A DNA stretch of 32,000 nucleotides from an uncultured Mycoplasmatota bacterium (GCA_948465965.1 CAOJYR010000001.1:40353-72352), one strand, 5' to 3'; numbered from the stretch's first letter, positions 222 to 22,826 are shown. Notes: a model not told the origin generated them from the sequence alone. Numbers and translations: made by a program.

Positions 222-404
222 AAAAAAAGCCAGAAAAGAGCGTCCTGTCCAACGATAAAACCTGCATATTTACAGGTGGGTGTTCTTACGTCATCCTTAG
301 GATCCCTACTAATAAGCAGGTATTCAACACAGATAACTGTTCAAAACTCCCTTATCGTCACTTTAGTCGGTTTTATATGAGAACAAGTCTCGCATCTTCC
401 TGAC
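222..404 (-). ncRNA. candidate structured small RNA of about 180 nt (6S-like end-to-end closing stem); identity unproven
   Basis: GC-enriched, non-coding stretch in an AT-rich context. An extended -10 box (TGgTATAAT, 419-411) sits about 7 nt upstream. The 5' GUCAGGAAG can pair with the 3' CUUUUCUGGC, with G-U pairs, just before a U7 tract (228-222). The + strand ORF 155..403 here looks spurious. Confidence 0.3.
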
Positions 405-410
405 AATTAT

Positions 411-2024: not shown

Positions 2025-2843
2025 TTATTTTCTTATTTCACGTTTAATCAATTTAGCATGTAATACCATTTTTTCATTATTATTATAACAAGTAGATAAA
2101 GTTATAATTTTATCATTTTCTAATACTTCAGTATTAAAATTATAAACACTTCTACCTCGAATAAGATGAATAAAACTATTAAATTGACTACTATTACCAA
2201 AATTAATATTCAAATAATCATCTGTAGTTTTGATATGATAAATACTAAACACTTCATATAAATAATTATTATTTGGAGTAGAAATTTTCACTAAGAAATT
2301 ACTATCATTAGAAAACCATTCCTGCCTCAAAGTACTTTTTAAACTCCCAAACATAGTTCCATCCACTCTACCATGAGCATAAATAATTGTATTTTTATCT
2401 AATTCATCAATATTATTTCGATAATCTAAAAACACCCAACCTGCATCATTATATTTTTTATTAAAAGAATGCTTTAAATAATAACTATTATCGCTATGTT
2501 GTACAAAAGGGTAATCTATATTAGTACCTAAAACCTTTATCCAACCAACAACTTCATTATTAACCTCCTGTAATTTAGAAAAGTCAACACGAAGCAATTT
2601 CTCATTATGATATTTACTATTTCCATATACTTCTGTTAAAGAACCATCCCCCGCTTCACTTCTTTTAGCCTTATCTTGAACATTCCTAATTTCATTGTTT
2701 GTATTCATATTATCAATCCACCAAGAAACTATCCTGTAAAAGGAATACATCATCAACAAACTAAAAAATATAAGTAAAACGAATAATATAATTGTCTTAA
2801 TTTTTCTTCTAGATCTTCTCCTAACCCTAAATATCCCCATCAC
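2025..2843 (-). CDS. class B-type sortase (transpeptidase)
   Basis: N-terminal TM anchor, catalytic His context IIYAHG, the TLSTC active-site motif, and a C-terminal Arg region. Confidence 0.75.
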   Translation of the reverse strand: MMGIFRVRRRSRRKIKTIILFVLLIFFSLLMMYSFYRIVSWWIDNMNTNNEIRNVQDKAKRSEAGDGSLTEVYGNSKYHNEKLLRVDFSKLQEVNNEVVGWIKVLGTNIDYPFVQHSDNSYYLKHSFNKKYNDAGWVFLDYRNNIDELDKNTIIYAHGRVDGTMFGSLKSTLRQEWFSNDSNFLVKISTPNNNYLYEVFSIYHIKTTDDYLNINFGNSSQFNSFIHLIRGRSVYNFNTEVLENDKIITLSTCYNNNEKMVLHAKLIKREIRK

Positions 2844-4213
2844 TACTCTCCTATTTTATCTAAAATATAATTAGAAACATCCTCTGTTTTTAATGTAATC
2901 TGTTCCATAGTATCCCTGTCTCTTACAGTGACTGTACCATTATTTATAGTCTCATCATCAACTGTAATACAATATGGAGTACCAATCGCATCACTTCTTC
3001 TGTAGCGTTTACCAATAGATCCAGTCTCATCATAGCTTGTCATAAATTTAGAGCTTAACTCACTATAAAGTTCTTTAGCCTTTTCTCCATGATATTTTTT
3101 ATTTAAAGGTAAAACAGCTACTTTATATGGAGCAAGATATGGAGTTAACTTCATAACTTCACGTCTATCTCCACCCTCAAGTTCTTCCACTGTATAAGCA
3201 TTATCTAAAACAGCTAAAACTAATCGATCACATCCAACAGTAGACTCAATGATATAAGGAATATATTTTTCATTAGTTATAGGATCCAAATATTCTTGGG
3301 ATACAGTAGAATACTCTTGATGACGACTCAAATCATAATTGGTTCTATTATGGGTTCCATTAATCTCTCCCCATCCAAAACTAAATTGATATTCAATATC
3401 ACATGCCTCTTTTGCATAATGAGCAAGTTTTTCATGATCATGATATCTTAACTTCTCTTCTGGAATTCCCAAATCTATAAAATATTTTTTAGCATATTCT
3501 CTAAAATAATTATAAAGATCTGAATCAAATCCTTCCTTACAAAATGTTTGATATTCCATTTGTTCAAATTCTATAGTTCTAAAAGTAAAGTTACCTGGAG
3601 TAATCTCATTTCGAAATGCTTTACCAATTTGACCAATACTAAACGGAAGCTTAGCTCTCATACTTCTTTGAACATTTAAGAAATTAACGTATTCTCCTTG
3701 TGCATTCTCAGGGCGCAAATAAACTTTATTTTTTCCATCTTCTGTAACACCGCGATGTGTTTCGAACATTAAATTAAATTGTCTAATATTCGTATAATCA
3801 CTCTTACCACACTTTGGACAAGGTACTTTATGTTCGCGAATATATTCCATCATCTCTTCTTGTGTCATACCATCCGCATGAGCATCAGGATCAAAATCAT
3901 CAATTAAGTTATCAGCACGATGCCTCATTTTACAACTCTTACAATCGATTAATGGATCCGAAAAACTTCCAACATGACCACTTGCTTCCCAAACACGAGG
4001 ATGCATTAAAATAGCCGCATCAACTTCATAAGCATTGGGACGTTGTTGTATAAATCTTTTCCTCCAAGAATCCTTAATATTATTCTTTAATCTCGCTCCA
4101 AGTGGTCCATAATCCCATGTATTCGCAAGGCCTCCATATATCTCACTCCCTTGAAATATAAAACCATATTGCTTACAATAATTTACTAATTTCTCCATTG
4201 TTAACTTTTCCAT
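2843..4213 (-). CDS. glyQS: glycine--tRNA ligase, single-chain type
   Basis: N-terminus KQYGFIFQGSEIYGGLANTWDYGPLG plus class II aaRS motifs throughout. AGGAGG lies 6 nt before the ATG. A T-box leader lies upstream. Confidence 0.95.
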   Translation of the reverse strand: MEKLTMEKLVNYCKQYGFIFQGSEIYGGLANTWDYGPLGARLKNNIKDSWRKRFIQQRPNAYEVDAAILMHPRVWEASGHVGSFSDPLIDCKSCKMRHRADNLIDDFDPDAHADGMTQEEMMEYIREHKVPCPKCGKSDYTNIRQFNLMFETHRGVTEDGKNKVYLRPENAQGEYVNFLNVQRSMRAKLPFSIGQIGKAFRNEITPGNFTFRTIEFEQMEYQTFCKEGFDSDLYNYFREYAKKYFIDLGIPEEKLRYHDHEKLAHYAKEACDIEYQFSFGWGEINGTHNRTNYDLSRHQEYSTVSQEYLDPITNEKYIPYIIESTVGCDRLVLAVLDNAYTVEELEGGDRREVMKLTPYLAPYKVAVLPLNKKYHGEKAKELYSELSSKFMTSYDETGSIGKRYRRSDAIGTPYCITVDDETINNGTVTVRDRDTMEQITLKTEDVSNYILDKIGE

Positions 4214-4487: not shown

Positions 4488-5408
4488 TTATGCAACATCA
4501 TCTATTTTATTTATCTGCTCTTTAGTCAAATGGGTATACTTAGATATAAATTCGATATCTATATCATCTTTTAACATCGCTTTAGCTATTTCTTTGGAAC
4601 CTTCTTGTTTACCTAAATCCTTCCATGCCCATTCCTTGTCATAACTTTCTCCAAAAAACTCATCTTCTACTACTTCCTCTGCTTCTTTTATATATTCTTC
4701 CATAATCTCCAAGTCTCCTCCTAATTCTTTTGAAGTTAGAATATCTGGCTCTATTAATCCTAGTGCATATCTTTCTTCTTCACTTAGTCTTTGTATGCCA
4801 CTAGTATACCATTTTCGTCTTAAATTTGGAATATAGATTTGAATAAATATTAACTTATCATTTAATACGACTCCTTCATCATTTTTAATCATATAAATAT
4901 CTATTATTTTATCATTCCCCTTAAAAGAAAAGTTATTCCAGTTGAATTGAATCACCTGTGTATAAGAATAGTCACTATTTCTTTTTACTTTACTTGCATA
5001 AAGTCTATGAGCATATTCCATATTTCGCTCTAGTACTTCTTTACTACTATTATTATTTATTTCTATATTTATTTTAATATCATTCACTATCGCAACATAA
5101 TCACATCTCTCTCCTTTATTTCTTTCTTTATCTTTATCCAATTCTCCTTTTGATAATTTAATATTATTTAGTAAGTCTTCATATTCAATATCTAGGTAAT
5201 ACGATAAAAACTTAGCCGAATACTTTATTCTGTTCTCATTATAAAACATAGTTTTAAACATACTATCTGACATTATAGATGGCTTTTGTCCTTCTTTCAA
5301 TTTTTCAATTTTTACTGAATCCTTATATGAAACAATATTATCATATAAAGACTTATAATTATAATCTCTTAATTTTAACACTTTATTCCTCCCAATAGTT
5401 TGACTCAT
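4488..5408 (-). CDS. PD-(D/E)XK nuclease family, putative transposase (Rpn/YhgA-like), island-flanking copy 1
   Basis: FKTMFYNENRIKYSAKFLSYYL...CDYVA...INIEINNN fits the Rpn-like D...ExQ/N core. Paralogous to 11639..12448. An alternative start is ATG 5273. Confidence 0.55.
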   Translation of the reverse strand: MSQTIGRNKVLKLRDYNYKSLYDNIVSYKDSVKIEKLKEGQKPSIMSDSMFKTMFYNENRIKYSAKFLSYYLDIEYEDLLNNIKLSKGELDKDKERNKGERCDYVAIVNDIKINIEINNNSSKEVLERNMEYAHRLYASKVKRNSDYSYTQVIQFNWNNFSFKGNDKIIDIYMIKNDEGVVLNDKLIFIQIYIPNLRRKWYTSGIQRLSEEERYALGLIEPDILTSKELGGDLEIMEEYIKEAEEVVEDEFFGESYDKEWAWKDLGKQEGSKEIAKAMLKDDIDIEFISKYTHLTKEQINKIDDVA

Positions 5409-5580: not shown

Positions 5581-7188
5581 TCATCTATGCATATTTACAT
5601 TAGAGTAATGGTTACTTGTATCAAGCAATAATCTTTTAAGTTGTTCATCTGTTATATTTATTACTTTTCCACCCTTAGGATTAATTTTTTTACCACCAAA
5701 AACAATCCATATTGCATCAATACTCCTATCTGGCATACTAGATTCTCCATCGGTAAAGATTATCTTGTTTTCAACTCTCCCAGTAAATACATTAACAGCA
5801 ACATCAAAGTTTGTTCCACCACCACCAAGAAATGGCATATTATCAATATCATTTTGATTTCTAATCTCGGTAAACCCATAAAATTCATCATCGAAACATC
5901 CTACTTTTACTTTAGATTCTTTTAAAATGTTTTTACATTCTCTTAAAAAATTCCTTAATAGCGTTTCAGAAACAGACCCACTTGTATCTAATAATATCTC
6001 AGTCTCAGGCTTAGGCATTTGTTCAAGATAAGGAGTTACTACGCCATCCTCTATAGAAGCATTTCTATAAGACCAATCAACATCATACCTCACAGCCTCT
6101 TTCAAGAGATATCTCCAATCGATTAATGGTTTACTTACACCTATATCAGTTACCTTTCTTTCATCACCATTTGACCCCTTCCCAGAACAATGTGACTGAC
6201 TAGCAAGTGATTTTCTTAATTCCTCCAATTGCTTTATTCGATCTATACTATTCTGTTTAAAAGATTTCTTTTCACCTAAATCTGTCAATTTTTTAATTTG
6301 TTGTTCCTTCTCTTTTCGCTTTTCATTCTTTTCCCTTTGAAAATTAGTTTTGGCATCCTCTGAAGTTTTCTCTATTGTTTGCTCATCTTGATTCGCATTA
6401 CCCTTTTTATCATTCCAATCCTTATGAAAAACTCTATCAAAAAAGCCTCTTTTATCTTTGGAGTTTATATTACCTTTAGTACCAACCATATCCGTATCAC
6501 TTGATTGTTGTACCGAATTGTCCTCTAAACCACTATCCTGTTTTTCATGTTGAAAGTCTTGATGTGGTGATTGTTCTAATTTATTATTATTAGCATCCTC
6601 ATCCTCTTGACGTCTTTTCTGGACACCCTTTTGCCACATATTATGTGTATCATACCCCACATCTATATTAGATGCTTGAGAATTTTCACTAGAACCTGAC
6701 CTGCTTTCATTTTGAGAATTCTGTTTCTGGGGACTAATACTATCCTGTGATTCATTACTGTTTTTATCCTGATGCCTTTTCTTATCCTCTAATAATTTCT
6801 CATAAAAAGACTCAGCATCATAATAAATAGCCTCTGGAATATTAATACTATCTTTTGGAATTACTATACCATCTTGTTTTAAATTAGCATTTACAACAGC
6901 ATCCGTTGCTATATTCCAAAGTTCAGGATCCTTCCCTTCACTTCTAAAAATATGATCAAAAGCTATATGACATATTTCATGTGCAAAAAGATACAATCTT
7001 TCTTCTTCTGTTGCATTCCTTAAATAATCTGGATGATAATAAACATTAGTTCCATCCGTCCCTCCAGTTGGTTGACCATTAGAATAACAATTGCTATCTT
7101 CTATATAATTTGTATTTGCTACTATACTTCCAAAAAAAGGATACTTAACTAATAACTTTCTTTTAATTGCTTCAATATCCACTTTCAA
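5581..7188 (-). CDS. putative Zn-metallopeptidase (HExxH) fused to a VWA domain (DUF2201-like), with a long low-complexity linker
   Basis: N-terminal FAHEICHIAFDH...ATDAVVN (HExxH). C-terminal ILLDTSGSVS (DxSGS MIDAS-type motif). A central linker of about 200 aa is rich in Q/S/N/E/K. Confidence 0.7.
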   Translation of the reverse strand: MKVDIEAIKRKLLVKYPFFGSIVANTNYIEDSNCYSNGQPTGGTDGTNVYYHPDYLRNATEEERLYLFAHEICHIAFDHIFRSEGKDPELWNIATDAVVNANLKQDGIVIPKDSINIPEAIYYDAESFYEKLLEDKKRHQDKNSNESQDSISPQKQNSQNESRSGSSENSQASNIDVGYDTHNMWQKGVQKRRQEDEDANNNKLEQSPHQDFQHEKQDSGLEDNSVQQSSDTDMVGTKGNINSKDKRGFFDRVFHKDWNDKKGNANQDEQTIEKTSEDAKTNFQREKNEKRKEKEQQIKKLTDLGEKKSFKQNSIDRIKQLEELRKSLASQSHCSGKGSNGDERKVTDIGVSKPLIDWRYLLKEAVRYDVDWSYRNASIEDGVVTPYLEQMPKPETEILLDTSGSVSETLLRNFLRECKNILKESKVKVGCFDDEFYGFTEIRNQNDIDNMPFLGGGGTNFDVAVNVFTGRVENKIIFTDGESSMPDRSIDAIWIVFGGKKINPKGGKVINITDEQLKRLLLDTSNHYSNVNMHR

Positions 7189-7198
7189 ATTTATATCC

Positions 7199-7597
7199 CT
7201 AAATATGCACCATCAATGAATATACTTCTTCACTAATTGGCTTTTCCTCTAGATTAGTAGCTGTTACAATAATAAAACAATTTCTTGGTAAGTCAAAGGT
7301 ACTAATTTTCTTATATTTTAATATTTCAATAAATTTTGTTTGTTTATCTAGTTTAAGTTGATTTATATTATCTATAATTAGTATTGCAGGTTTATCCTTA
7401 TTATTTGTTAATTCATAGTACCAATCAGGTGCTCTAAAAGTAAAACCTTCATAATGCCCATTTAATAATGAAATATCACAATTTGCATCTATTATGACAG
7501 CATTTTCAAAAATATTCGCAGGAATATCTTCTAACAAAATTGGAGACATACCTGATCGAATATATCCATCTAACATCGCTAATCTCTCTTTGTTCAT
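7199..7597 (-). CDS. small AAA-like protein lacking a Walker A motif
   Basis: PAILIIDNINQL resembles Walker B and CFIIVTATN resembles sensor 1, but no GxxxxGK(S/T) is present. The start overlaps the upstream stop (ATGA, 7597-7594). Confidence 0.45.
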   Translation of the reverse strand: MNKERLAMLDGYIRSGMSPILLEDIPANIFENAVIIDANCDISLLNGHYEGFTFRAPDWYYELTNNKDKPAILIIDNINQLKLDKQTKFIEILKYKKISTFDLPRNCFIIVTATNLEEKPISEEVYSLMVHI

Positions 7598-9207
7598 CGA
7601 CTCATTCCTCCTTCCGATAGCTCAACCATTTTTAATTCTGCTATTTTCTCTAGTCTAGACTCATCACCATGGGACCACAAGCTATCAAAAGTAGCTCCAA
7701 TTTCTGGTCCTAATTTCATAACAAAATTTCTTATAGTTAGTAAATTACTATCATCAACTGAGGAAAGCCCAACTGCTGTTGCAAACTTCTGTGCTGTATT
7801 CATTTCTAAATCCTCTTCTGTATAATTACCATTCAATACATCTTCAACCGTTATAACTCGCTGCCTAGTAAATGCAGTAAAATCTCTTGTTAACTCCTCT
7901 CCAATTAATGCCCTTAACATTTCAGGTTGCCCTGTAGCATACAAAACTTTAGATGCCATCTCCCATTTTCTGGGATCTGCATTTGGTTTTTCCCCATTAT
8001 AGGGAGTCCTTAGAACATCCTTACCACCAGAGGATTTATAAGCAACATATGCATATATTGAAGGATGAATTGTTAATTGTTCCTCTTCTTTTTTATAATT
8101 CAATCTTTCATATTGCTTTTTTGGAGTGGATGCCCATTGAAGCCAATTATCAACTGTTGTATTTATATATACATGAGCAAAACGATTAAATAGTGGTTCT
8201 GCCATTGTATTCGCAGCTAGAGAATCATTTAAATCATTTCCTGCAGCAACAATACGTACATTTTCTGGTAATTTCCAAATACCATTTACTTCTTTGTCCA
8301 AAACAATATTAAACGCCATACCCTGAATAGAAGGAAGCGCATTTGTAATTTCATCAAAAAATACAATATGCAATTTATCAGGTTCATCTTCACATTTCTT
8401 TTTAATTTTAGAAAGCCAAGTTGGAGCTACATCAATCATCTCTCCAGTTGCAGAATTAAAAACACTTTTTCCATTCAAACTCTCAGGAGTTGCATTCCTT
8501 AAATAAATAATCTCACAATCAGGATCAAATTGTTTTACTCTTGCACTTTTACCCTCACTACTTCTACCATGCAAAAAAACCGCAATATTACTTTCCAACG
8601 CACCCCTAATAATTTCTTCTTCTGATACATTTTCAAAATTAAAACCATATGGATTTTGTCTTCTCTCCATTCGTTTTCTTTCTTCATCTGTTAAAGGTTT
8701 GCTTTCTACAAATGATCTATTCTGCATTAAATCAGTTGAAAAATACGTATCCATATATTGTTTTATATCTGTTGTACTAAAATCCCCTTTATAATCTCTC
8801 TTATGTTTAAATTGAACCCCTGCAAATAATATCTTCTCACTAAGCATAATTCCTGATTGCTCATCAACTATCCACTTAACAGGTTCTACTTCTACCCAAA
8901 CATAATCTCCATCGACATACTCACACCCATTAGATAGTGTAAATTTACTACCACCAAAATCTGAATTCGCCAAAACCCTTACATATCTTTTATTATCATA
9001 TTCATATTCATCTATAGTCCTCGGTAAAAACTTTTCATCATATTCATCATATTTTCTTGAATCAACAGTATATGTATTACCTGTTCGTCTCATTCTACCG
9101 CTATGATACGCTTGCTCTAATGTAGACTGCATAAGTTGCGTAGCCACAGTTTGTGGATAGAATCCATACTCAACTTCTAAAATACCGTCATCCGCTCTTC
9201 TACTCAC
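7594..9207 (-). CDS. MoxR-like AAA+ ATPase with an N-terminal beta-rich (DUF6273-like) region; probable body of the DGR target
   Basis: Walker A GRSSEGKS, Walker B HIVFFDEITN, sensor-1 VRIVAAGN. The track start GTG 9207 has no spaced RBS, and the frame stays open upstream through the VR to 9303. Confidence 0.75.
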   Translation of the reverse strand: MSRRADDGILEVEYGFYPQTVATQLMQSTLEQAYHSGRMRRTGNTYTVDSRKYDEYDEKFLPRTIDEYEYDNKRYVRVLANSDFGGSKFTLSNGCEYVDGDYVWVEVEPVKWIVDEQSGIMLSEKILFAGVQFKHKRDYKGDFSTTDIKQYMDTYFSTDLMQNRSFVESKPLTDEERKRMERRQNPYGFNFENVSEEEIIRGALESNIAVFLHGRSSEGKSARVKQFDPDCEIIYLRNATPESLNGKSVFNSATGEMIDVAPTWLSKIKKKCEDEPDKLHIVFFDEITNALPSIQGMAFNIVLDKEVNGIWKLPENVRIVAAGNDLNDSLAANTMAEPLFNRFAHVYINTTVDNWLQWASTPKKQYERLNYKKEEEQLTIHPSIYAYVAYKSSGGKDVLRTPYNGEKPNADPRKWEMASKVLYATGQPEMLRALIGEELTRDFTAFTRQRVITVEDVLNGNYTEEDLEMNTAQKFATAVGLSSVDDSNLLTIRNFVMKLGPEIGATFDSLWSHGDESRLEKIAELKMVELSEGGMSR

Positions 9208-9510
9208 TCCGTTCGTAGAGATATCAGAGATTGAAGAGTACGTTAAAGCTGGGCGAGCACCACCATCGCGTTTAATAACATCGATGTCGTATCTATAACC
9301 ATTCTAGTAAACGACGCGCGCGTCATTATCCTGATCATCAGAACTTGTCCAATACCATCCTGTCCTATCCGCTAAAGTATTATTACTATGGTCAACATAA
9401 TAATCATCATCGACATAAGCGCCCAATAAAATTGAAAAATCTGTTACAGCCGCCTTTGTACCTCTTTTTTTTATAATATTAATTGGATTATTAAAATATT
9501 GATTTTTACA
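9208..9510 (-). pseudogene. DGR variable-region module (KAAVTDFSILLG...GWYWTSS...ARPAL) in frame with the AAA+ ORF, interrupted by TAG at 9306-9304, with no canonical start
   Basis: My translation: CKNQYFNNPINIIKKRGTKAAVTDFSILLGAYVDDDYYVDHSNNTLADRTGWYWTSSDDQDNDARVVY*NGYRYDIDVIKRDGGARPALTYSSISDISTNG, followed by VSRRADDG of the AAA ORF. The pseudogene label is provisional. Confidence 0.6.
9249..9322 (-). repeat. DGR variable repeat (VR)
   Basis: 74-nt match to 10763-10836 with 11 mismatches (9267, 9268, 9275, 9282, 9284, 9288, 9291, 9297, 9298, 9304, 9309). Each mismatch faces a T on the + strand of the TR, which is an A on the coding strand. Confidence 0.93.
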
Positions 9511-10539
9511 TTATTTGACATCTTTTGGTAAAATTTTCCTTTTAAAATTCAAACTTTCATCTGTATTTTTAACATGATTATAAAATGCATTTTTTCGCAT
9601 ATAAACATAAAAGGAATCTACAATATTCTTATTTTCTAATTTTTCTAGTGTTCGTAAATGTTTTTTCATTCTTGATTTAGAAGATGCTCTAAGTTTCCTA
9701 ATAATCTTTCCACTATCTGTTAGTATATGTCTGTAACCTAAAAAATCAATTCCATCACACACTTTCCCAATCTGTGTCTTTTGATTTAAAGATAATTTAA
9801 GTTCTAAAGAGCAAACTCTCTCTATTTCTTTTAAACATCTACGTAAATATGCTTTATCACGATGTATTAAAATCATATCATCCATATACCGAACATAACC
9901 TTTTATTCTAAACCTCTCTTTAATAAGTCGATCAACTTTATTTAAATATAGTAAAGCAAACCATTGACTAGTCTGGTTCCCCAAAGGTAGTCCAATTTTC
10001 ACATCATTAGGTTGCTGTCGTATCATCTTCTCTATAATCCACATTTCATCATCACTAAAGGATACTTCTTTCAATAATTTAATAAGTATATCATGATTAA
10101 TACTAGGAAAATACTTCTTTATATCACACTTTAAAAAGTAAAAATGATTATTATTCTCTTTTAAATACTCATGGCGCAAAAATTTTTCTAATCTATGAAT
10201 CGCAAAATCAGAACCCTTACCACACCTACATGCAGCATTATCAAATATAAGCTTTGCCTCAATCTTTTCTTTAACCGAATGATCACAAAGACACCTTATC
10301 ACTACTCTATCCTTATAAGGAAGAGCTTCAATTAATCTCTCTTTCGGTTCATAAATATAAAATTCGCGATATTTACCCAATTTATATTCTCTGGTAGTAA
10401 TTTCTTTTATTATCTTACTTATATTAACACTAAGATTAGCTTCAAATCGAATCACCTCACCCTTATGTTGTTTGCCTTTGCGACAATTTTTATGGGCTTC
10501 ATATAAATTTTCAAAAGTAAAAATATCTTCTAATTTCAT
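9511..10539 (-). CDS. DGR reverse transcriptase
   Basis: IGLPLGNQTSQ matches the DGR-type (I/L)GxxxSQ. YMDD catalytic box (VRYMDDMILI). An N-terminal FENLYEAHKNCRKGK region is present. Size of about 340 aa with no maturase or endonuclease domains. ATG 10539 lies 4 nt after GGAGGGAG. Confidence 0.9.
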   Translation of the reverse strand: MKLEDIFTFENLYEAHKNCRKGKQHKGEVIRFEANLSVNISKIIKEITTREYKLGKYREFYIYEPKERLIEALPYKDRVVIRCLCDHSVKEKIEAKLIFDNAACRCGKGSDFAIHRLEKFLRHEYLKENNNHFYFLKCDIKKYFPSINHDILIKLLKEVSFSDDEMWIIEKMIRQQPNDVKIGLPLGNQTSQWFALLYLNKVDRLIKERFRIKGYVRYMDDMILIHRDKAYLRRCLKEIERVCSLELKLSLNQKTQIGKVCDGIDFLGYRHILTDSGKIIRKLRASSKSRMKKHLRTLEKLENKNIVDSFYVYMRKNAFYNHVKNTDESLNFKRKILPKDVK

Positions 10540-10551
10540 AACTCCCTCCAA

Positions 10552-10762
10552 AAAAAGAACACCCCTTATAACCTCTAAAGATAGAATAATCTAACGTTAG
10601 AAAGTGTAAGTGTTCAAATTATTCCACCGCACTAATCTCTCCTAGCGGTTAGAAAAGAGAAAAATCCCTTCACTCTATGGAACTGATATATCTTACTTAA
10701 AATATATTTCTCTGTCCTGTTTTCTAGATTCACGATTTTTGTAAATCTCTTCAAAAGTGAAT
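10552..10762 (-). ncRNA. DGR spacer RNA region between TR and RT (part of the TR transcript)
   Basis: Non-coding and GC-enriched relative to its surroundings. Contains the 8-bp hairpin AGATTCAC/GTGAATCT (10726-10733 with 10757-10764) abutting the TR 3' end, and a CCGC...GCGG hairpin near 10628-10650. Confidence 0.6.
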
Positions 10763-10836
10763 CTGGGCGAGCACCACCATTTCGTTTATTAACATTGTTG
10801 TTGTTTCTATTTCCATTTTAGTTAACGACGCGCGCG
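10763..10836 (-). repeat. DGR template repeat (TR)
   Basis: In the target frame the coding strand reads cgc gtc gtt AAC TAA AAT gga AAT aga AAC AAC AAC AAT gtt AAT aaa cga AAT ggt ggt gct cgc cca. This is the AAY-codon-rich pattern typical of DGR TRs. It is non-coding, between avd and RT. Confidence 0.93.
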
Positions 10837-10924
10837 AGGCAACACGAGGGGGCTCAAGCGACGTAACCACCCTAAAATTAAATTTTTCTCTTAATTAAAA
10901 GCCTTTCGACTTAAAATCCTAAAA

Positions 10925-11503
10925 TCATTTTCTAAATCTTTTATCGTCACTTTTTTTCCAAGCAACAATCAAATTTATAGCATCAGCTGTCTGTAAAGAT
11001 ATCTGCCTATATTGCTTTCTTAAAATACAGCCAGATGATTCCGCAACCATTGCAATATAGCCAAGCATTTTAAGTTTAACAATTGCTTCTTTTTGAAAAT
11101 CTTCACGACGCTTCTTATTTAGATCACTATCCAGTCTTATAAAATTGGCCTGAAGCAAATCTTCTAAAACATCTAAACAATAATTTTGCATTCGATTAAC
11201 AAAAACTCCTCTAAATCTTTTAGGAGATTTCTCTGTAATAGCTATAACATAAGCACATAATTTCTTTACTTTAGTTATAACAATTAAATCATTAGAATTA
11301 AAAGGTATCTTAGAAACACTCTCTAATTCTCTGTCAAAGTCTTCCACCTGCTCTAAAATCTTCTTCTCATTGATTTTTTTATCATTCGCCATCGCAATAG
11401 ATATTTTTGATTCAACTTCATCATCTACACTATTCACGACTTTTACGACTTGTTCTACTTCTTTTGGTATTTTCAAACTACCATCTCTACTAACTTGTAA
11501 CAC
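10925..11503 (-). CDS. avd: Avd-like accessory variability determinant (four-helix-bundle family) with an N-terminal extension
   Basis: The C-terminal ~120 aa (KLCAYVIAITEKSPKRFRGVFVNRMQNYCLDVLEDLLQAN...LKMLGYIAMVAESSGCILRKQYRQISLQ...AWKKSD) resembles Avd and 23S-IVS helical bundle proteins, and the gene sits in the canonical position 5' of the TR. GTG 11503 lies 8 nt after GGAGGG. The track start 11563 falls in a -35 box. Confidence 0.7.
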   Translation of the reverse strand: MLQVSRDGSLKIPKEVEQVVKVVNSVDDEVESKISIAMANDKKINEKKILEQVEDFDRELESVSKIPFNSNDLIVITKVKKLCAYVIAITEKSPKRFRGVFVNRMQNYCLDVLEDLLQANFIRLDSDLNKKRREDFQKEAIVKLKMLGYIAMVAESSGCILRKQYRQISLQTADAINLIVAWKKSDDKRFRK

Positions 11504-11638: not shown

Positions 11639-12448
11639 CTATTTTAACTTTTCTACTTCTTCAATGGATAATTTTGTTATTTTAGAAATTGTACCAATAT
11701 CTATTTTTTCCTTTATCATCTCTTTTGCCATATTTATTGTATTGTCTTTCGCACCATCATTATATGATTCTTCTTTTAAAGCTAATTCTTTATCATAAAT
11801 CTCACCAAAATATTCATCATCTAATACCTCATTTACTTCTTTTATATAGTCTTTCATAATTTTTAAGTCTCCTCCCAATTCTTTAGAAGAAATTATATTT
11901 GGCTCTACTAAAGCCAATATAAATCTTTCTGCTTCGGTTAGGTTTTGTATACCTTGATTGTACCATTTTCTCCTTAAATTGGGAATATAGATTTGAATAA
12001 ATATTATATCATTTGAGAGTCTTAATTTTCCTTTATTATTTATTGTATAGATATCTATTACTTTATTATTTCCAACGAATGAAAAGTTATTTAAATTAAA
12101 TTGTATTATTTGCCTATATTTATAAGTGGATTTGTCTTTTCCTCTTTTTACTTTACTTCCATATAATTTGAATGCATAGTCCATGTTCCTCTTTAAATAT
12201 TTCATATTACTATTACTATTACTATTATTATTTACCTCAATATTTATTCTAGCATCATCTATACCCGCTACATAATCACTTCTATATTCCTTATTATTAT
12301 GTTTTTCTTTGTCCAACTCTCCCTTGCTTAACCTTATATTTTCTAACAATTCTTCATAACTTATATCTAGAAAGTATGAAATGAATTTAACACTATACTT
12401 AAGTCTATTTTCATTATAGAAAATAGTATGAAATAGCGTATCAGACAT
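11639..12448 (-). CDS. PD-(D/E)XK nuclease family, putative transposase (Rpn/YhgA-like), island-flanking copy 2, N-terminally shortened
   Basis: Collinear with 4488..5408 (FHTIFYNENRLKYSVKFISYFL...SDYVA...INIEVNNN) and shares identical nucleotide runs such as ggaatatagatttgaataaatatta. Homologous coding-like sequence continues upstream to the recO stop without a start codon. Confidence 0.55.
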   Translation of the reverse strand: MSDTLFHTIFYNENRLKYSVKFISYFLDISYEELLENIRLSKGELDKEKHNNKEYRSDYVAGIDDARINIEVNNNSNSNSNMKYLKRNMDYAFKLYGSKVKRGKDKSTYKYRQIIQFNLNNFSFVGNNKVIDIYTINNKGKLRLSNDIIFIQIYIPNLRRKWYNQGIQNLTEAERFILALVEPNIISSKELGGDLKIMKDYIKEVNEVLDDEYFGEIYDKELALKEESYNDGAKDNTINMAKEMIKEKIDIGTISKITKLSIEEVEKLK

Positions 12449-12532: not shown

Positions 12533-13273
12533 TTAACTAGTTAATTTGTTAAGCTCCCTAATAAAGTTTTTACTTTTTAAATAAATTCCTGTATATCGAT
12601 CATAATAATCATCTAAAAATTGATTAATCTCTTTTACCACACTCTCACTTACATCTAATTTAGTTATATTTTTAATATCAACATAATAAAACAATCTAAT
12701 CATCTTTATTGCTTTATCACTTACCAATGGCTCATTTTGATAACAATTCCGACAGATGTATCCTCCCGCAGTAGAGTCAATCGTTACAATCGCCTTATCA
12801 CTACCACATATACTGCAAAAATCAATAGATGGTCTAACCCCTAAAAAATCTAAAAGTTTTAATTCTAAAATATTAGTAAGAACAATTGGAGAAAAGCCTT
12901 CATCCATTTTTAGTAGTGTATCTTTAAAAAGTTCAAATATCTCCTCATCTTCACTTTCTTTAGTCACCTGATTAACAAGTTCTAAAATAAAAGAGGCATA
13001 ACTTACTCTTTCTAAATCCATTACGATATTAGAAAAAGAATTAATAATATCTACCCCAATTAATGTAGATAGTCCTTTTTCTTTAAAATAAATATGAAAA
13101 GTACCATAAACAAGTTTTCTACTCACCCCACGTAACTTACTTTTCATACTACGACATCCCTTAGACATAATTCCAATAAGACCAAATTCTTTTGTTAAAA
13201 CATTTAAAATCTTACTAGATTCACTATAATTTGTCTCACTTAAAACAATTCCTTCTACTGCTTCTATTTTCAT
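12533..13273 (-). CDS. recO: DNA repair protein RecO
   Basis: OB-fold N-terminus and a Cys4 zinc module (CSICGS...CRNC). Conserved era-yqzL-recO order. Confidence 0.85.
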   Translation of the reverse strand: MKIEAVEGIVLSETNYSESSKILNVLTKEFGLIGIMSKGCRSMKSKLRGVSRKLVYGTFHIYFKEKGLSTLIGVDIINSFSNIVMDLERVSYASFILELVNQVTKESEDEEIFELFKDTLLKMDEGFSPIVLTNILELKLLDFLGVRPSIDFCSICGSDKAIVTIDSTAGGYICRNCYQNEPLVSDKAIKMIRLFYYVDIKNITKLDVSESVVKEINQFLDDYYDRYTGIYLKSKNFIRELNKLTS

Positions 13274-22749: not shown

Positions 22750-22826
22750 TGGTGTCCGCGAGGCGACTCGAACGCCTGACCGATCGCTTAGAAGGCGATT
22801 GCTCTATCCAGCTGAGCTACGCAGAC
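22750..22826 (-). tRNA. tRNA-Arg (anticodon TCT), CCA encoded
   Basis: The minus strand reads GTCTGCGTAGCTCAGCTGGATAGAGCAATCGCCTTCTAAGCGATCGGTCAGGCGTTCGAGTCGCCTCGCGGACACCA. It has the D-loop AGCTCAGCTGGATAGAGC, the anticodon loop CTTCTAA, and the T-loop GTTCGAGTC. Confidence 0.9.

Follow-up and report, generated by a model that had tools for sequence, protein, structure and literature searches.

To our knowledge, little is understood of what cellular diversity-generating retroelements (DGRs) do, and the targets described to date are, with few exceptions, proteins of the cell surface or the virion which bear the variable repeat (VR) in a C-terminal C-type lectin domain. We examined a stretch of 32,000 nucleotides from an uncultured Mycoplasmatota bacterium (GCA_948465965.1, CAOJYR010000001.1:40353-72352), here called the window and numbered from its first letter. 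A first-pass annotation had described a complete DGR at 9249-11503. Is this a genuine DGR, which gene does it diversify, and what does it mean that the VR contains a stop codon? The features of the locus are listed below.

4488..5408, minus strand: second Rpn-family paralog, at the downstream edge of the module; shares 59% identity with the ORF at 11639..12448
5581..7188, minus strand: DUF2201 partner protein, a DUF2201_N putative metallopeptidase domain plus a DUF2201 VWA-like domain
7199..7597, minus strand: 132-aa ORF, overlaps the ATPase stop
7594..9521, minus strand: DGR target gene, ~270-aa N-terminal module with the VR, then a MoxR-like AAA+ ATPase
9244..9264, minus strand: IMH-like 3' end of the VR, GGTGGTGCTCGCCCAG followed by CTTTA; within coding sequence (GGARPAL)
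9249..9322, minus strand: variable repeat (VR), target codons ~68-92
9304..9306, minus strand: in-frame TAG within the VR, from TR codon TAA by a third-position A>G change
9503..9507, minus strand: A5 run at which the frame is off by one; second lesion, near the target start
9511..10539, minus strand: DGR reverse transcriptase (RT), 342 aa, ATG after GGAGGGAG
10540..10762, minus strand: TR-RT spacer, 223 nt, structured, five conserved helices
10754-10761/10669-10676, 10743-10748/10726-10731 and 10699-10707/10686-10694, minus strand: spacer helices 1-3
10645-10653/10623-10630 and 10608-10615/10557-10564, minus strand: spacer helices 4-5
10758..10778, minus strand: IMH*-like 3' end of the TR, GGTGGTGCTCGCCCAG followed by ATTCA; same as the VR through CCAG, then diverges
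10763..10836, minus strand: template repeat (TR), non-coding, AAY-rich, in-register TAA at 10818-10820
10925..11503, minus strand: avd-like accessory gene encoding 192 aa, with GGAGGG 8 nt ahead of its GTG start
11639..12448, minus strand: putative recombination-promoting nuclease of the Rpn family (PD-(D/E)XK), at the upstream edge of the module

Template and variable repeat differ at adenines only

The first-pass annotation had aligned TR and VR by hand. A fresh alignment of the minus (coding) strand confirmed 63 identities in 74 positions between 10763-10836 and 9249-9322. All 11 mismatches are at a TR adenine; thus, 11 of the 28 TR adenines and 0 of the 46 non-A positions are substituted. 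The spectrum was likewise as described, A>T six times, A>G four times and A>C once. A non-A mismatch would have argued against a DGR; the new alignment has none across 74 nt. Both translations were reproduced exactly, stop included: the TR reads ARVV N [stop] N G N R N N N N V N K R N GGARP and the VR reads ARVV Y [stop] N G Y R Y D I D V I K R D GGARP. The TR is rich in AAY codons, as the annotation had stated.

The TR is composed of 28 A, 17 G, 15 C and 14 T, and the hypergeometric probability that 11 of 11 mismatches land on A is 5.1e-6. An independent repeat search placed the pair first among the direct repeats of the region (77 nt, 9246-9322 and 10760-10836). When the TR was compared with the whole window by blastn, the VR was the only second copy (E = 2e-12). 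The TR sits in the 385-nt gap which separates avd from the RT gene; the VR is in frame within an ATPase-family ORF. Pooled over 15 related loci, VR substitutions were found at 158 of 378 TR adenines (42%) compared to 18 of 702 non-A positions (2.6%); these counts exclude L011, in which the VR was mis-anchored in the alignment. L025, L063 and L077 were left unused because of gapped alignments.

TR and VR share a GC-rich 3' end (GGTGGTGCTCGCCCAG), beyond which the VR continues with CTTTA and the TR with ATTCA. Directly 3' of the VR as originally delimited there is a 12th difference, C at 9248 and A at 10762. It is kept, identically or as a close variant, in 11 related loci which were checked codon by codon (VR CCAGCTTTA or CCAGCTTTG, TR CCAGATTCA or CCAGATTTG). 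We read it as the probable IMH/IMH* boundary rather than as a product of mutagenesis. Neither a stable hairpin nor a cruciform was detected 3' of the IMH (z = +1.5).

The mutagenesis machinery is of the DGR type

The RT is located 3' of the TR and has both motifs reported earlier; LGNQTSQ (residue 186) precedes YMDD (residue 218). It matched Pfam RVT_1 with E = 1e-17. The best PDB match was 8ub7 (E = 2.5e-38), a chain 100% identical to Brt of the Bordetella phage BPP-1. Among the other solved classes, group II RTs reached 6.5e-11 and retron RTs 5e-10, i.e. Brt was ahead by 27 orders of magnitude. At the level of sequence, membership in the DGR RTs is supported. RTs from gut and other phages were 33-41% identical among the matches listed, and Bordetella phages were among the 144 matching records. 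RTs of related loci were 62-70% identical. An exact look-up of the 342-aa RT returned no record.

An Avd-like ORF is present 5' of the TR; its GTG start at 11503 coincides with the end coordinate given in the first-pass annotation. The protein consists of ~75 additional N-terminal aa and, behind them, a putative bAvd-like helical bundle. It scored against Pfam bAvd PF22296 with E = 2.3e-5 (25.3 bits, under the cutoff of 40) and against NCBIfam DivGenRetAVD NF033474 with E = 3.7e-7 (30.4 bits, under the cutoff of 80). A sequence search against the PDB gave only noise. Homologs with 63-73% identity are present at the same position in 22 related loci.

The spacer between TR and RT was folded with RNAalifold using 14 species. 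This yielded 39 pairs, 19 with compensatory changes; 97.6% of the cells were paired compared to 39-59% when the partners were slid, and the observed value was reached in 0 of 500 shuffles. A structured spacer RNA downstream of the TR is known as Sp in BPP-1 (PMC6182149; bioRxiv 10.1101/2023.10.23.563531). We infer that the spacer is the structured non-coding part of the putative DGR RNA. No Rfam family was detected over TR or spacer, and in a promoter/terminator scan matches were no more numerous than in shuffled sequence.

RT or Avd homologs were found upstream of the target in 33 of 78 species-level loci examined; both were present, in the order seen in the window, in 21 of 78. The Avd-TR-RT-VR layout, with adenine-specific mismatches of its own, recurs in about 20 species. 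The DGR call of the first-pass annotation is thus supported by an RT with DGR affinity, an Avd-like protein, a non-coding TR and adenine-only VR differences. With high probability the locus is a genuine DGR of the standard mechanistic type with an unusual target and an unusual template. By analogy to BPP-1, an RNA consisting of TR and structured spacer would be bound by RT and Avd, the TR RNA would be reverse-transcribed with misincorporation opposite template adenines, and the cDNA would replace the VR, with the IMH/IMH* difference setting the direction.

The prototypical BPP-1 DGR (mtd-avd-TR-brt) shares with the window an RT with [I/L]GxxxSQ and YMDD motifs, Brt being the closest solved relative, a putative Avd-type accessory gene, and a non-coding TR which is rich in AAY and is separated from the RT by a structured spacer RNA. 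Adenine-specific TR/VR differences and a GC-rich repeat 3' end which diverges between TR and VR (IMH*/IMH) are also common to both. In the window, however, the genes run in the order avd-TR-RT-target and the VR comes after the RT; it falls close to the N-terminus of a cytoplasmic ATPase, whereas that of BPP-1 is at the C-terminus of a tail-fibre C-type lectin domain. Further differences from BPP-1 are the nonsense codon in the TR, the ~75-aa extension of Avd, the missing hairpin after the IMH and a chromosomal instead of a phage-borne location.

The target is an AAA+ ATPase with a hypervariable N-terminal module

Which gene is diversified? The position of the VR relative to the genes, not given in the first-pass annotation, is near the 5' end of the gene downstream of the RT. 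The ATG of this gene (9519-9521) overlaps the RT stop. The VR lies ~70 codons into the target (residues ~68-92 of ~645) rather than at the 3' terminus of a target gene upstream of avd. Only three DGRs with the VR at the N-terminus were listed by Wu et al. (2018; PMC5758913). The target is interrupted twice in the window, and gene annotation retains only a 537-aa ORF at 7594-9207. A read-through translation matches a family of ~645-aa proteins over 98-100% of its length.

The Walker A (GRSSEGKS) and Walker B (FFDE) motifs of the ATPase are both invariant in the family. In a Foldseek search with the ATPase half NorQ and CbbQ came out best (E = 4e-9 to 1.6e-6), followed by dynein AAA+ and MCM. 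None of the Pfam AAA families reached threshold, and the target family profile had no match among PDB sequences. Judged by the structural model, the ATPase half resembles the MoxR type and appears closest in fold to NorQ/CbbQ. The likeness to the NorQ-NorD and CbbQ-CbbO pairs extends beyond the superposition of the ATPase half: an adjoining gene encodes a VWA protein whose MIDAS-like motif is of the DxSxS form. In contrast, none of the NorQ/CbbQ ATPases has a hypervariable N-terminal module of ~270 aa, and the ATPase reported here lacks a threshold-level sequence match to any PDB chain or Pfam AAA family.

The N-terminal module was modelled by AlphaFold with a pLDDT of 88.5 and a pTM of 0.90. 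Foldseek retrieved nothing significant for it from the PDB (best E = 0.11) or BFVD (best E = 0.09), C-type lectin DGR variable proteins included. Over the WWxS...ARVV stretch some family members resemble DUF6273 and Fib_succ_major below threshold (5 of 18 each; best E = 5e-6 for DUF6273 and 0.008 for Fib_succ_major). The module may still be a C-type lectin fold that has diverged strongly. With the CLec2-type cellular DGRs (Legionella LdtA; DUF1566/Fib_succ_major class, Wu et al., 2018, PMC5758913) only this weak sub-threshold similarity is shared. Their targets are surface lipoproteins with a C-terminal VR, whereas the AlphaFold model of the module has no C-type lectin structure match.

Variability of the target is concentrated in the VR. 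In 52 close homologs the mean entropy was 1.54 bits in the VR stretch vs 0.18 bits elsewhere; G78, V85, R88, G90-91 and R93-P94 are invariant scaffold positions. One 90%-identity cluster of target homologs has 818 members; among the nine full-length ones listed, most differences are in the VR stretch. Three contigs share an identical neighbouring gene; two of them have clearly different VRs and the third is off by one residue.

The ATPase is part of a conserved gene module

Next to the ATPase, the 132-aa ORF is present in 74 of 76 related loci and the DUF2201 gene also in 74 of 76; all three genes are together in 72 of 76. The 132-aa ORF had no match in Pfam, NCBIfam or PADLOC. The DUF2201 partner scored with E = 2.6e-27 for DUF2201_N and E = 4.7e-11 for the VWA-like DUF2201 domain, and it has an HEICH motif at residue 70 and a MIDAS-like DTSGS motif at residue 401. 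PADLOC assigned none of the ATPase, 132-aa, DUF2201 and Avd proteins to a defence family. The DGR module is chromosomal, located between recO and glyQS and bracketed by the two Rpn-family paralogs; the ORF at 11639..12448 matched NCBIfam TIGR01784 below cutoff (E = 2.3e-9). No phage genes were found near the module.

DGR-associated MoxR-vWA 'ternary' conflict systems have been described in multicellular cyanobacteria and gammaproteobacteria (Kaur et al., 2020, PMC7159879; Dore et al., 2024, PMC10907252). There, a hypervariable domain is proposed to be an invader sensor which feeds an ATPase-controlled switch (PMC7159879; PMC10907252). The analogy suggests a role in conflict or defence for the target system reported here. 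In the ternary systems the VR is in a C-terminal FGS/C-type lectin domain of the vWA protein or in a separate target beside the ATPase, whereas here the VR is N-terminal and in the ATPase itself. The partner combines a DUF2201 VWA with an HExxH domain, and the third gene is the 132-aa ORF. VMAP, STAND, TIR, caspase, trypsin or EAD, known from the ternary systems (Kaur et al., 2020), were not found in the module, and the hosts are small-genome gut Bacilli, not multicellular bacteria.

The target allele of this genome is null

The stop in the translations above, passed over in the first-pass annotation, is a real in-frame TAG which truncates the target. The other lesion is the frameshift in the A5 run. 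One extra A in this run restores a 642-codon ORF (MSNNVKNQYFNNPINIIKKRGTK...) with the VR TAG as the sole internal stop. Exact look-ups of the 537-aa and 132-aa ORFs retrieved one other contig only, L001, 99.98% identical, in which the sequence of the A5 run is the same. JGI metagenome contigs were scanned for both VR flanks with 0 matches. The frameshift is outside the VR and, therefore, the DGR cannot repair it. The TAG is one adenine substitution of the TR TAA; therefore, another homing event could reverse it. The machinery is complete, yet the target allele in this genome is null.

According to an accepted rule, AAY codons in the TR keep adenine mutagenesis from creating nonsense codons (PMC6328139; PMC10907252). 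This is not so here: the TR holds a TAA, and stops are present in the VR of the window and in related VRs. Besides TAA, the TR codons AAA and AGA can mutate to stops. A nonsense codon is present in 11 of 16 TRs of the lineage. VR stops interrupt otherwise intact ORFs (at least 640 aa) in L006, L012, L014 and L018, and L080 also has a VR stop; all of these are MAG consensus sequences which assembly across similar TR/VR copies could distort. Of the VR codons templated by a TR nonsense codon, 6 of 13 are stops compared to ~55% expected without selection against stops. Because these values are similar, OFF alleles seem to be frequent and tolerated.

Alternative explanations

Several other readings were weighed. 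That the pair is a chance or duplicated repeat next to an RT of another class, i.e. a retron, group II intron, Abi or DRT defence RT, would agree with a weak similarity to group II, Drt3a, retron and UG-class RTs in NCBIfam/PADLOC, yet all such matches are far under their cutoffs. The lead of BPP-1 Brt over all other solved structures, the TR-adenine specificity (P = 5e-6) and the recurrence of the layout with own A-specific mismatches in ~20 species leave this reading next to no chance; it is effectively refuted already. Hardly better, and very improbable, is a TAG which is recoded or read through and leaves the target intact. Some gut phages and bacteria reassign stop codons, and the ORF is open on either side of the TAG. 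However, the 31 long ORFs in the window end with TAA (18), TGA (8) or TAG (5); reassignment was rejected because TAG is in ordinary use as a stop. Housekeeping genes are intact under table 11, and tryptophan in conserved motifs is encoded by TGG, with no stop at any conserved W position. TR-templated codons of related loci are TAA, TAG or TGA, which no single reassignment fits, and the stop in the window coincides exactly with the TR TAA codon.

A decaying DGR has to be taken more seriously, although we consider it quite unlikely. In this case the target would be a pseudogene, the TR/VR differences would reflect past activity only and the cassette would be heading for loss. The two independent lesions, frameshift and nonsense codon, are compatible with decay, as is the state of the N-terminal FTFL motif, near-invariant in the family and absent or diverged in this target. 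L001, the sole other assembly of this species, has the same VR. Elsewhere in the lineage only RT fragments are left in L003, L023, L027, L030, L041, L043, L047 and L051, and L082 has a TR-VR recombination deletion. On the other hand, RT, Avd, TR and spacer are full length with intact catalytic motifs and conserved RNA helices, and not a single non-A mismatch has accumulated over the 74-nt repeat. The TAG is the exact product of one adenine substitution in the TR TAA, and the frameshift is in a homopolymer and could be a slippage variant or an assembly error.

A possible ON/OFF switch

A genuine DGR with a nonsense codon at a mutable TR position has a consequence for the target: retrohoming therefore gives F, L, S, Y, C, W or a stop at this site. 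The last homing event would have given TAG and, therefore, full-length target is OFF in this genome. Ligands or substrates may be recognised by the hypervariable surface of the N-terminal module, which would guide the AAA+/VWA remodelling pair, and possibly the peptidase, to changing cytoplasmic targets. The DGR may still be active in this strain, and the OFF states could be adaptive.

Are the TR nonsense codons a designed feature? The DGR would then be a diversifier and at the same time a stochastic ON/OFF switch, similar to phase variation, of a cytoplasmic AAA+/VWA-metallopeptidase machine. The N-terminal recognition module would constitute a previously unrecognised hypervariation scaffold, and the whole would operate as an anticipatory intracellular sensor against phages or invaders in small-genome gut Bacilli. 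We put this forward tentatively and consider it rather unlikely in its entirety.

The lineage is set apart by a hypermutated N-terminal module of a cytoplasmic MoxR-like ATPase with a VWA/metallopeptidase partner, by a scaffold without a detectable C-type lectin match and by a TR which departs from the avoidance of nonsense outcomes generally accepted for DGR templates. The literature on DGRs and RF39, on DGRs and MoxR and on DUF2201 contained no account of such an architecture that we could find. If true, a new target architecture would be added to the DGR repertoire, DGRs would be tied to AAA+-based conflict systems outside multicellular bacteria, and a compact 6-kb cassette would be at hand to test N-terminal, in-frame IMH sites. 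Relatives of the ATPase are present in 239 species-level genomes, mostly of uncultured gut Bacilli. Among the hosts is one complete MAG chromosome of 1.46 Mb.

A complete retroelement upstream of an ATPase gene

The machinery in the window is a diversity-generating retroelement (DGR). Its parts and their order, together with the neighbouring genes, are the following.

Features of the DGR and ATPase module
11503-10925, minus strand: gene like avd (accessory variability determinant), GTG start after GGAGGG, 192 aa
10836-10763, minus strand: template repeat (TR), aligned with the variable repeat (VR)
10762-10540, minus strand: spacer, 223 nt
10539-9511, minus strand: reverse transcriptase (RT), 342 aa, with LGNQTSQ and YMDD
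9521, minus strand: ATG of the target gene, overlapping the RT stop codon (ATGTCAAATAA)
9322-9249, minus strand: VR, inside the target
7594, minus strand: position to which the ORF in the VR frame runs on
7597-7199, minus strand: 132-aa ORF
7188-5581, minus strand: DUF2201_N/DUF2201 protein with HEICH (HExxH motif) and a DTSGS MIDAS-like motif
12533-13273: recO, flanking the module
2843-4213: glyQS, flanking the module on the side opposite recO
4488-5408 and 11639-12448, both minus strand: Rpn-family (PD-(D/E)XK, 'putative transposase') paralogs, 59% identical

TR (10836-10763) and VR (9322-9249) aligned without gaps on the minus strand with 63 of 74 positions identical, and all 11 mismatches were located at TR adenines (A>T six times, A>G four times, A>C once). 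The first-pass annotation had proposed this alignment and its restriction to adenines, and both held; its translations of the two repeats were exact, stop codon included. With 28 A among the 74 TR bases, 11 mismatches placed at random would all fall on A with a probability of 5.1e-6. In a mechanical repeat search the pair was the top direct repeat of the region; a third TR copy was absent from the 32-kb window. After the shared 3' end of the repeats, GGTGGTGCTCGCCCAG, the VR continues with CTTTA and the TR with ATTCA. The divergence is retained, as such or slightly varied, in the 11 related loci inspected and is read as the putative IMH/IMH*, the 3' ends of VR and TR. No hairpin was found 3' of the IMH in the window.

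The best solved relative of the RT was 8ub7 (E = 2.5e-38), compared with E = 6.5e-11 for group II and 5e-10 for retron RTs. The 8ub7 chain matched is Brt of Bordetella phage BPP-1 (100% sequence identity), to which the RT has affinity. Identity to the listed gut and other phage RTs was 33-41%, and Bordetella phages were among the 144 matching records. The putative Avd-like identity of the 192-aa protein rests on matches to bAvd and DivGenRetAVD, both sub-threshold, and on conserved position: 22 related loci carry a homolog, 63-73% identical, upstream of the TR. The spacer between TR and RT was kept across 14 species with five helices. Compensatory changes were present in 19 of 39 pairs; pairing amounted to 97.6% versus 39-59% with the partners slid, and none of 500 shuffles equalled the observed value. 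The spacer RNA covaries. The BPP-1 DGR needs a structured spacer RNA 3' of the TR (bioRxiv 10.1101/2023.10.23.563531), and the folded spacer of the window agrees with this. In the window's strain RT and Avd would copy the TR-spacer RNA and then home into the VR. No Rfam family covered the spacer. The sole Rfam matches in the window were a 6S RNA (224-408, minus strand; its 47.9 bits barely clear the 46.4-bit gathering score) and a tRNA gene (22753-22826, minus strand).

The module is located between recO and glyQS in housekeeping surroundings including era, cdd and ybeY; phage genes were absent from its neighbourhood. The G+C content of the window is 28.7%. The two Rpn-family paralogs bracket, in direct orientation, the approximately 6.2-kb DGR and ATPase module between glyQS and recO, and the surroundings vary by species (greA and pyk in the related locus L081, an rsmD-like gene in L080). 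Therefore, the module may be mobile or prone to recombination.

The target is a MoxR-like ATPase with its VR near the N-terminus

Positions 9510-7594, translated in the VR frame with the TAG read through, were used as a search query. More than 3,200 relatives were retrieved, typically of about 645 aa and covering 98-100% of the query; the match extended beyond the annotated 537-aa ORF into the sequence that precedes it. The VR therefore falls at residues ~68-92 of a ~645-aa protein. In an AlphaFold model of a 68%-identical homolog, residues 1-270 were confidently predicted (module alone: pLDDT 88.5, pTM 0.90). The C-terminal half has a MoxR-like fold; its closest superpositions were with NorQ and CbbQ, two AAA+ ATPases of the MoxR type, and the next with dynein AAA and MCM. 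Neither Walker motif, GRSSEGKS (A) or FFDE (B), varied across the target family. For the N-terminal module, no structure in the PDB (best E = 0.11) or BFVD (best E = 0.09) matched significantly. At the sequence level DUF6273 was touched by 5 of 18 family members (best E = 5e-6) and Fib_succ_major, a Pfam family tied to CLec2-type DGR targets (Wu et al. 2018, PMC5758913), also by 5 of 18 (best E = 0.008). In view of this weak similarity a very diverged lectin-like fold is possible. A search profile of residues 1-105 matched 1,082 representative clusters (E <= 1e-3), with the domain nearly always N-terminal.

In 72 of 76 loci the ATPase gene was linked to both the 132-aa ORF and the DUF2201 gene, the latter encoding the VWA/HExxH partner. 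PADLOC recognized none of these three genes. DGRs linked to MoxR-ATPase/vWA are known from multicellular cyanobacteria and gammaproteobacteria; there, a C-terminal FGS/C-type lectin domain carries the VR and belongs either to the vWA protein or to an adjacent target, and VMAP, STAND and effector domains occur alongside (PMC7159879, PMC10907252). N-terminal VRs are rare, with three DGRs in Wu et al. (PMC5758913). In the literature we found no description of a DGR which targets the ATPase itself, or of any DGR in this gut Bacilli group. The N-terminal module may be a surface that recognises variable ligands in the cytoplasm and steers the AAA+/VWA pair towards them; a part in conflict or defence would be the most plausible.

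Homologous variable repeats are hypervariable

A scan of one genome per species identified target relatives in 239 genomes. The 78 loci retained were nearly all from uncultured gut "Bacilli"/"Tenericutes" MAGs and included Coprobacillus sp. CAG:605, Clostridium sp. CAG:417, Ca. Faecisoma and one complete 1.46-Mb chromosome. RT or Avd homologs were present upstream of the target in 33 of the 78 loci, and both, in the order of the window, in 21; several further loci had RT fragments only. TR/VR pairs were obtained from about 20 loci. In 15 cleanly anchored pairs (locus L011 was left out of the pooled counts) 158 of 378 TR adenines were substituted (42%) versus 18 of 702 other positions (2.6%).

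The homologous VRs are hypervariable. In 52 close homologs the mean entropy was 1.54 bits at residues 72-92 versus 0.18 bits elsewhere; ten VR positions carried 9-13 residue types, and G78, V85, R88, G90-91 and R93-P94 were fixed scaffold positions. In a 90%-identity cluster of 818 members the nine full-length members listed differed mainly in the VR stretch. Three contigs with an identical neighbouring gene had two clearly different VRs, the third being off by one residue. In a sister cluster, that of protein P0027 (45 members; branch NIYIVNLEGHESSFQRYERICAARP, with L002, 5081 and 7001), the stretch at the VR position was invariant and not N-rich across the 15 members listed, and no RT or Avd homolog was found at the L002 locus. 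Therefore, the target scaffold exists also without a DGR.

Template-encoded stops and the state of the target

The VR codon 9306-9304 of the window is TAG, the matching TR codon TAA. TAG is a normal stop in this genome because 5 of 31 long ORFs of the window end with it (TAA 18, TGA 8). In-register TAA, TAG or TGA was present at mutable codons in 11 of 16 lineage TRs, mostly at repeat codon 6 or 12. The VR outcomes at TR-nonsense codons comprised TTA, TGG, TAT and TGC among others, and TR-templated stops were recurrent. Besides the window, VR stops were observed in L006 (TGA), L012 (TGA), L014 (TGA and TAG) and L018 (TAA), where an ORF of at least 640 aa was otherwise intact; the same holds for L080, in which the TAA had stayed unchanged. 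These related-locus stops are MAG consensus sequences, with contigs often breaking at the VR. Stops made up 6 of the 13 TR-nonsense-templated codons counted in the window and the genome-collection loci. From the pooled rates (P(A kept) = 0.58, P(A>G) = 0.18) we calculated a neutral expectation of approximately 0.55 for a stop at TAA. TR codon composition is said to prevent nonsense outcomes (PMC6328139, PMC10907252); this lineage departs from that rule. As the VR is N-terminal, a stop in it removes nearly the whole protein. OFF alleles may carry biological meaning.

The target ATG at 9521 lies in a frame shifted by one base relative to the remainder of the gene. An additional A in the A5 run at 9503-9507 yields MSNNVKNQYFNNPINIIKKRGTK... 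and a 642-codon ORF whose sole internal stop is the VR TAG. The FTFL motif of the family was unrecognisable in the N-terminus of the window target. The only other assembly of the organism (L001) has the same sequence. Because of the VR TAG and the out-of-frame start, this genome has its full-length target OFF. A further round of homing could revert the TAG; only slippage could revert the frameshift in the A5 run.

In L081 a target TAA is located just upstream of the aligned VR (~3900-3925, SDD*DNDARVV). The L081 TR (2349-2450) has TAA where the VR has GAA, a T/G difference outside adenine mutagenesis; L008 is similar (TR TAA, VR AGA). A mutation of the TR itself, later than the last homing, may account for this. 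Among the 150 best N-terminal-domain representatives, about 10 (P0156, P0184-P0292) were products of 66-86 aa ending inside the VR; in P0156 the VR passes into a TR-type flank (GGARPDSLL). Such short products may reflect stops in the VR, ends of contigs or chimeras of TR and VR.

Unusual related loci

In L082 (Logan contig of SRR13292339, ~1240-1440; protein P0010, 21 members) the RT and the target N-terminus are missing. An N-rich TR-like sequence (ARVVNNDGNSNNN*VNKRNGAARPAS) directly follows the Avd gene and is fused in frame to the remaining ATPase, which looks like a deletion through recombination of TR with VR. L020 has two paralogous targets (7001, 10883) whose VRs, ARVVNIGGDSNNNYVNKRTVGVRP and ARVVHYDGDSNSNLVNKRTGGVRP, differ from each other and are each compatible with the one TR, ARVVNNDGNSNNNNVNKRNGGVRP; therefore, one DGR appears to serve two targets. 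Tandem arrays of at least four paralogous ATPase genes were present in L056/L075 (contig CAKOQK010000005.1) and in L063, each gene with a different VR-like stretch resembling a VRAVNKNGNRNNKYRYKRNG-type TR. In L063 the N-termini of four copies are identical, perhaps through an error of assembly. Most of L083-L092, contigs of one species with the 133-aa neighbour P0137, stop at or just upstream of the target VR. This fits assembly breakage at the hypervariable TR/VR repeat and calls for caution, as VR sequences from MAGs may be consensus or chimeric. Lastly, some family members have 900-1000 aa (proteins P0002-P0004, P0039, P0101; P0166, P0213, P0241). In several of these proteins the VR-type domain is located at about residue 270-380 and not at the N-terminus, and in several representatives the 105-residue profile matched two stretches. 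Both point to a putative added or duplicated N-terminal module.
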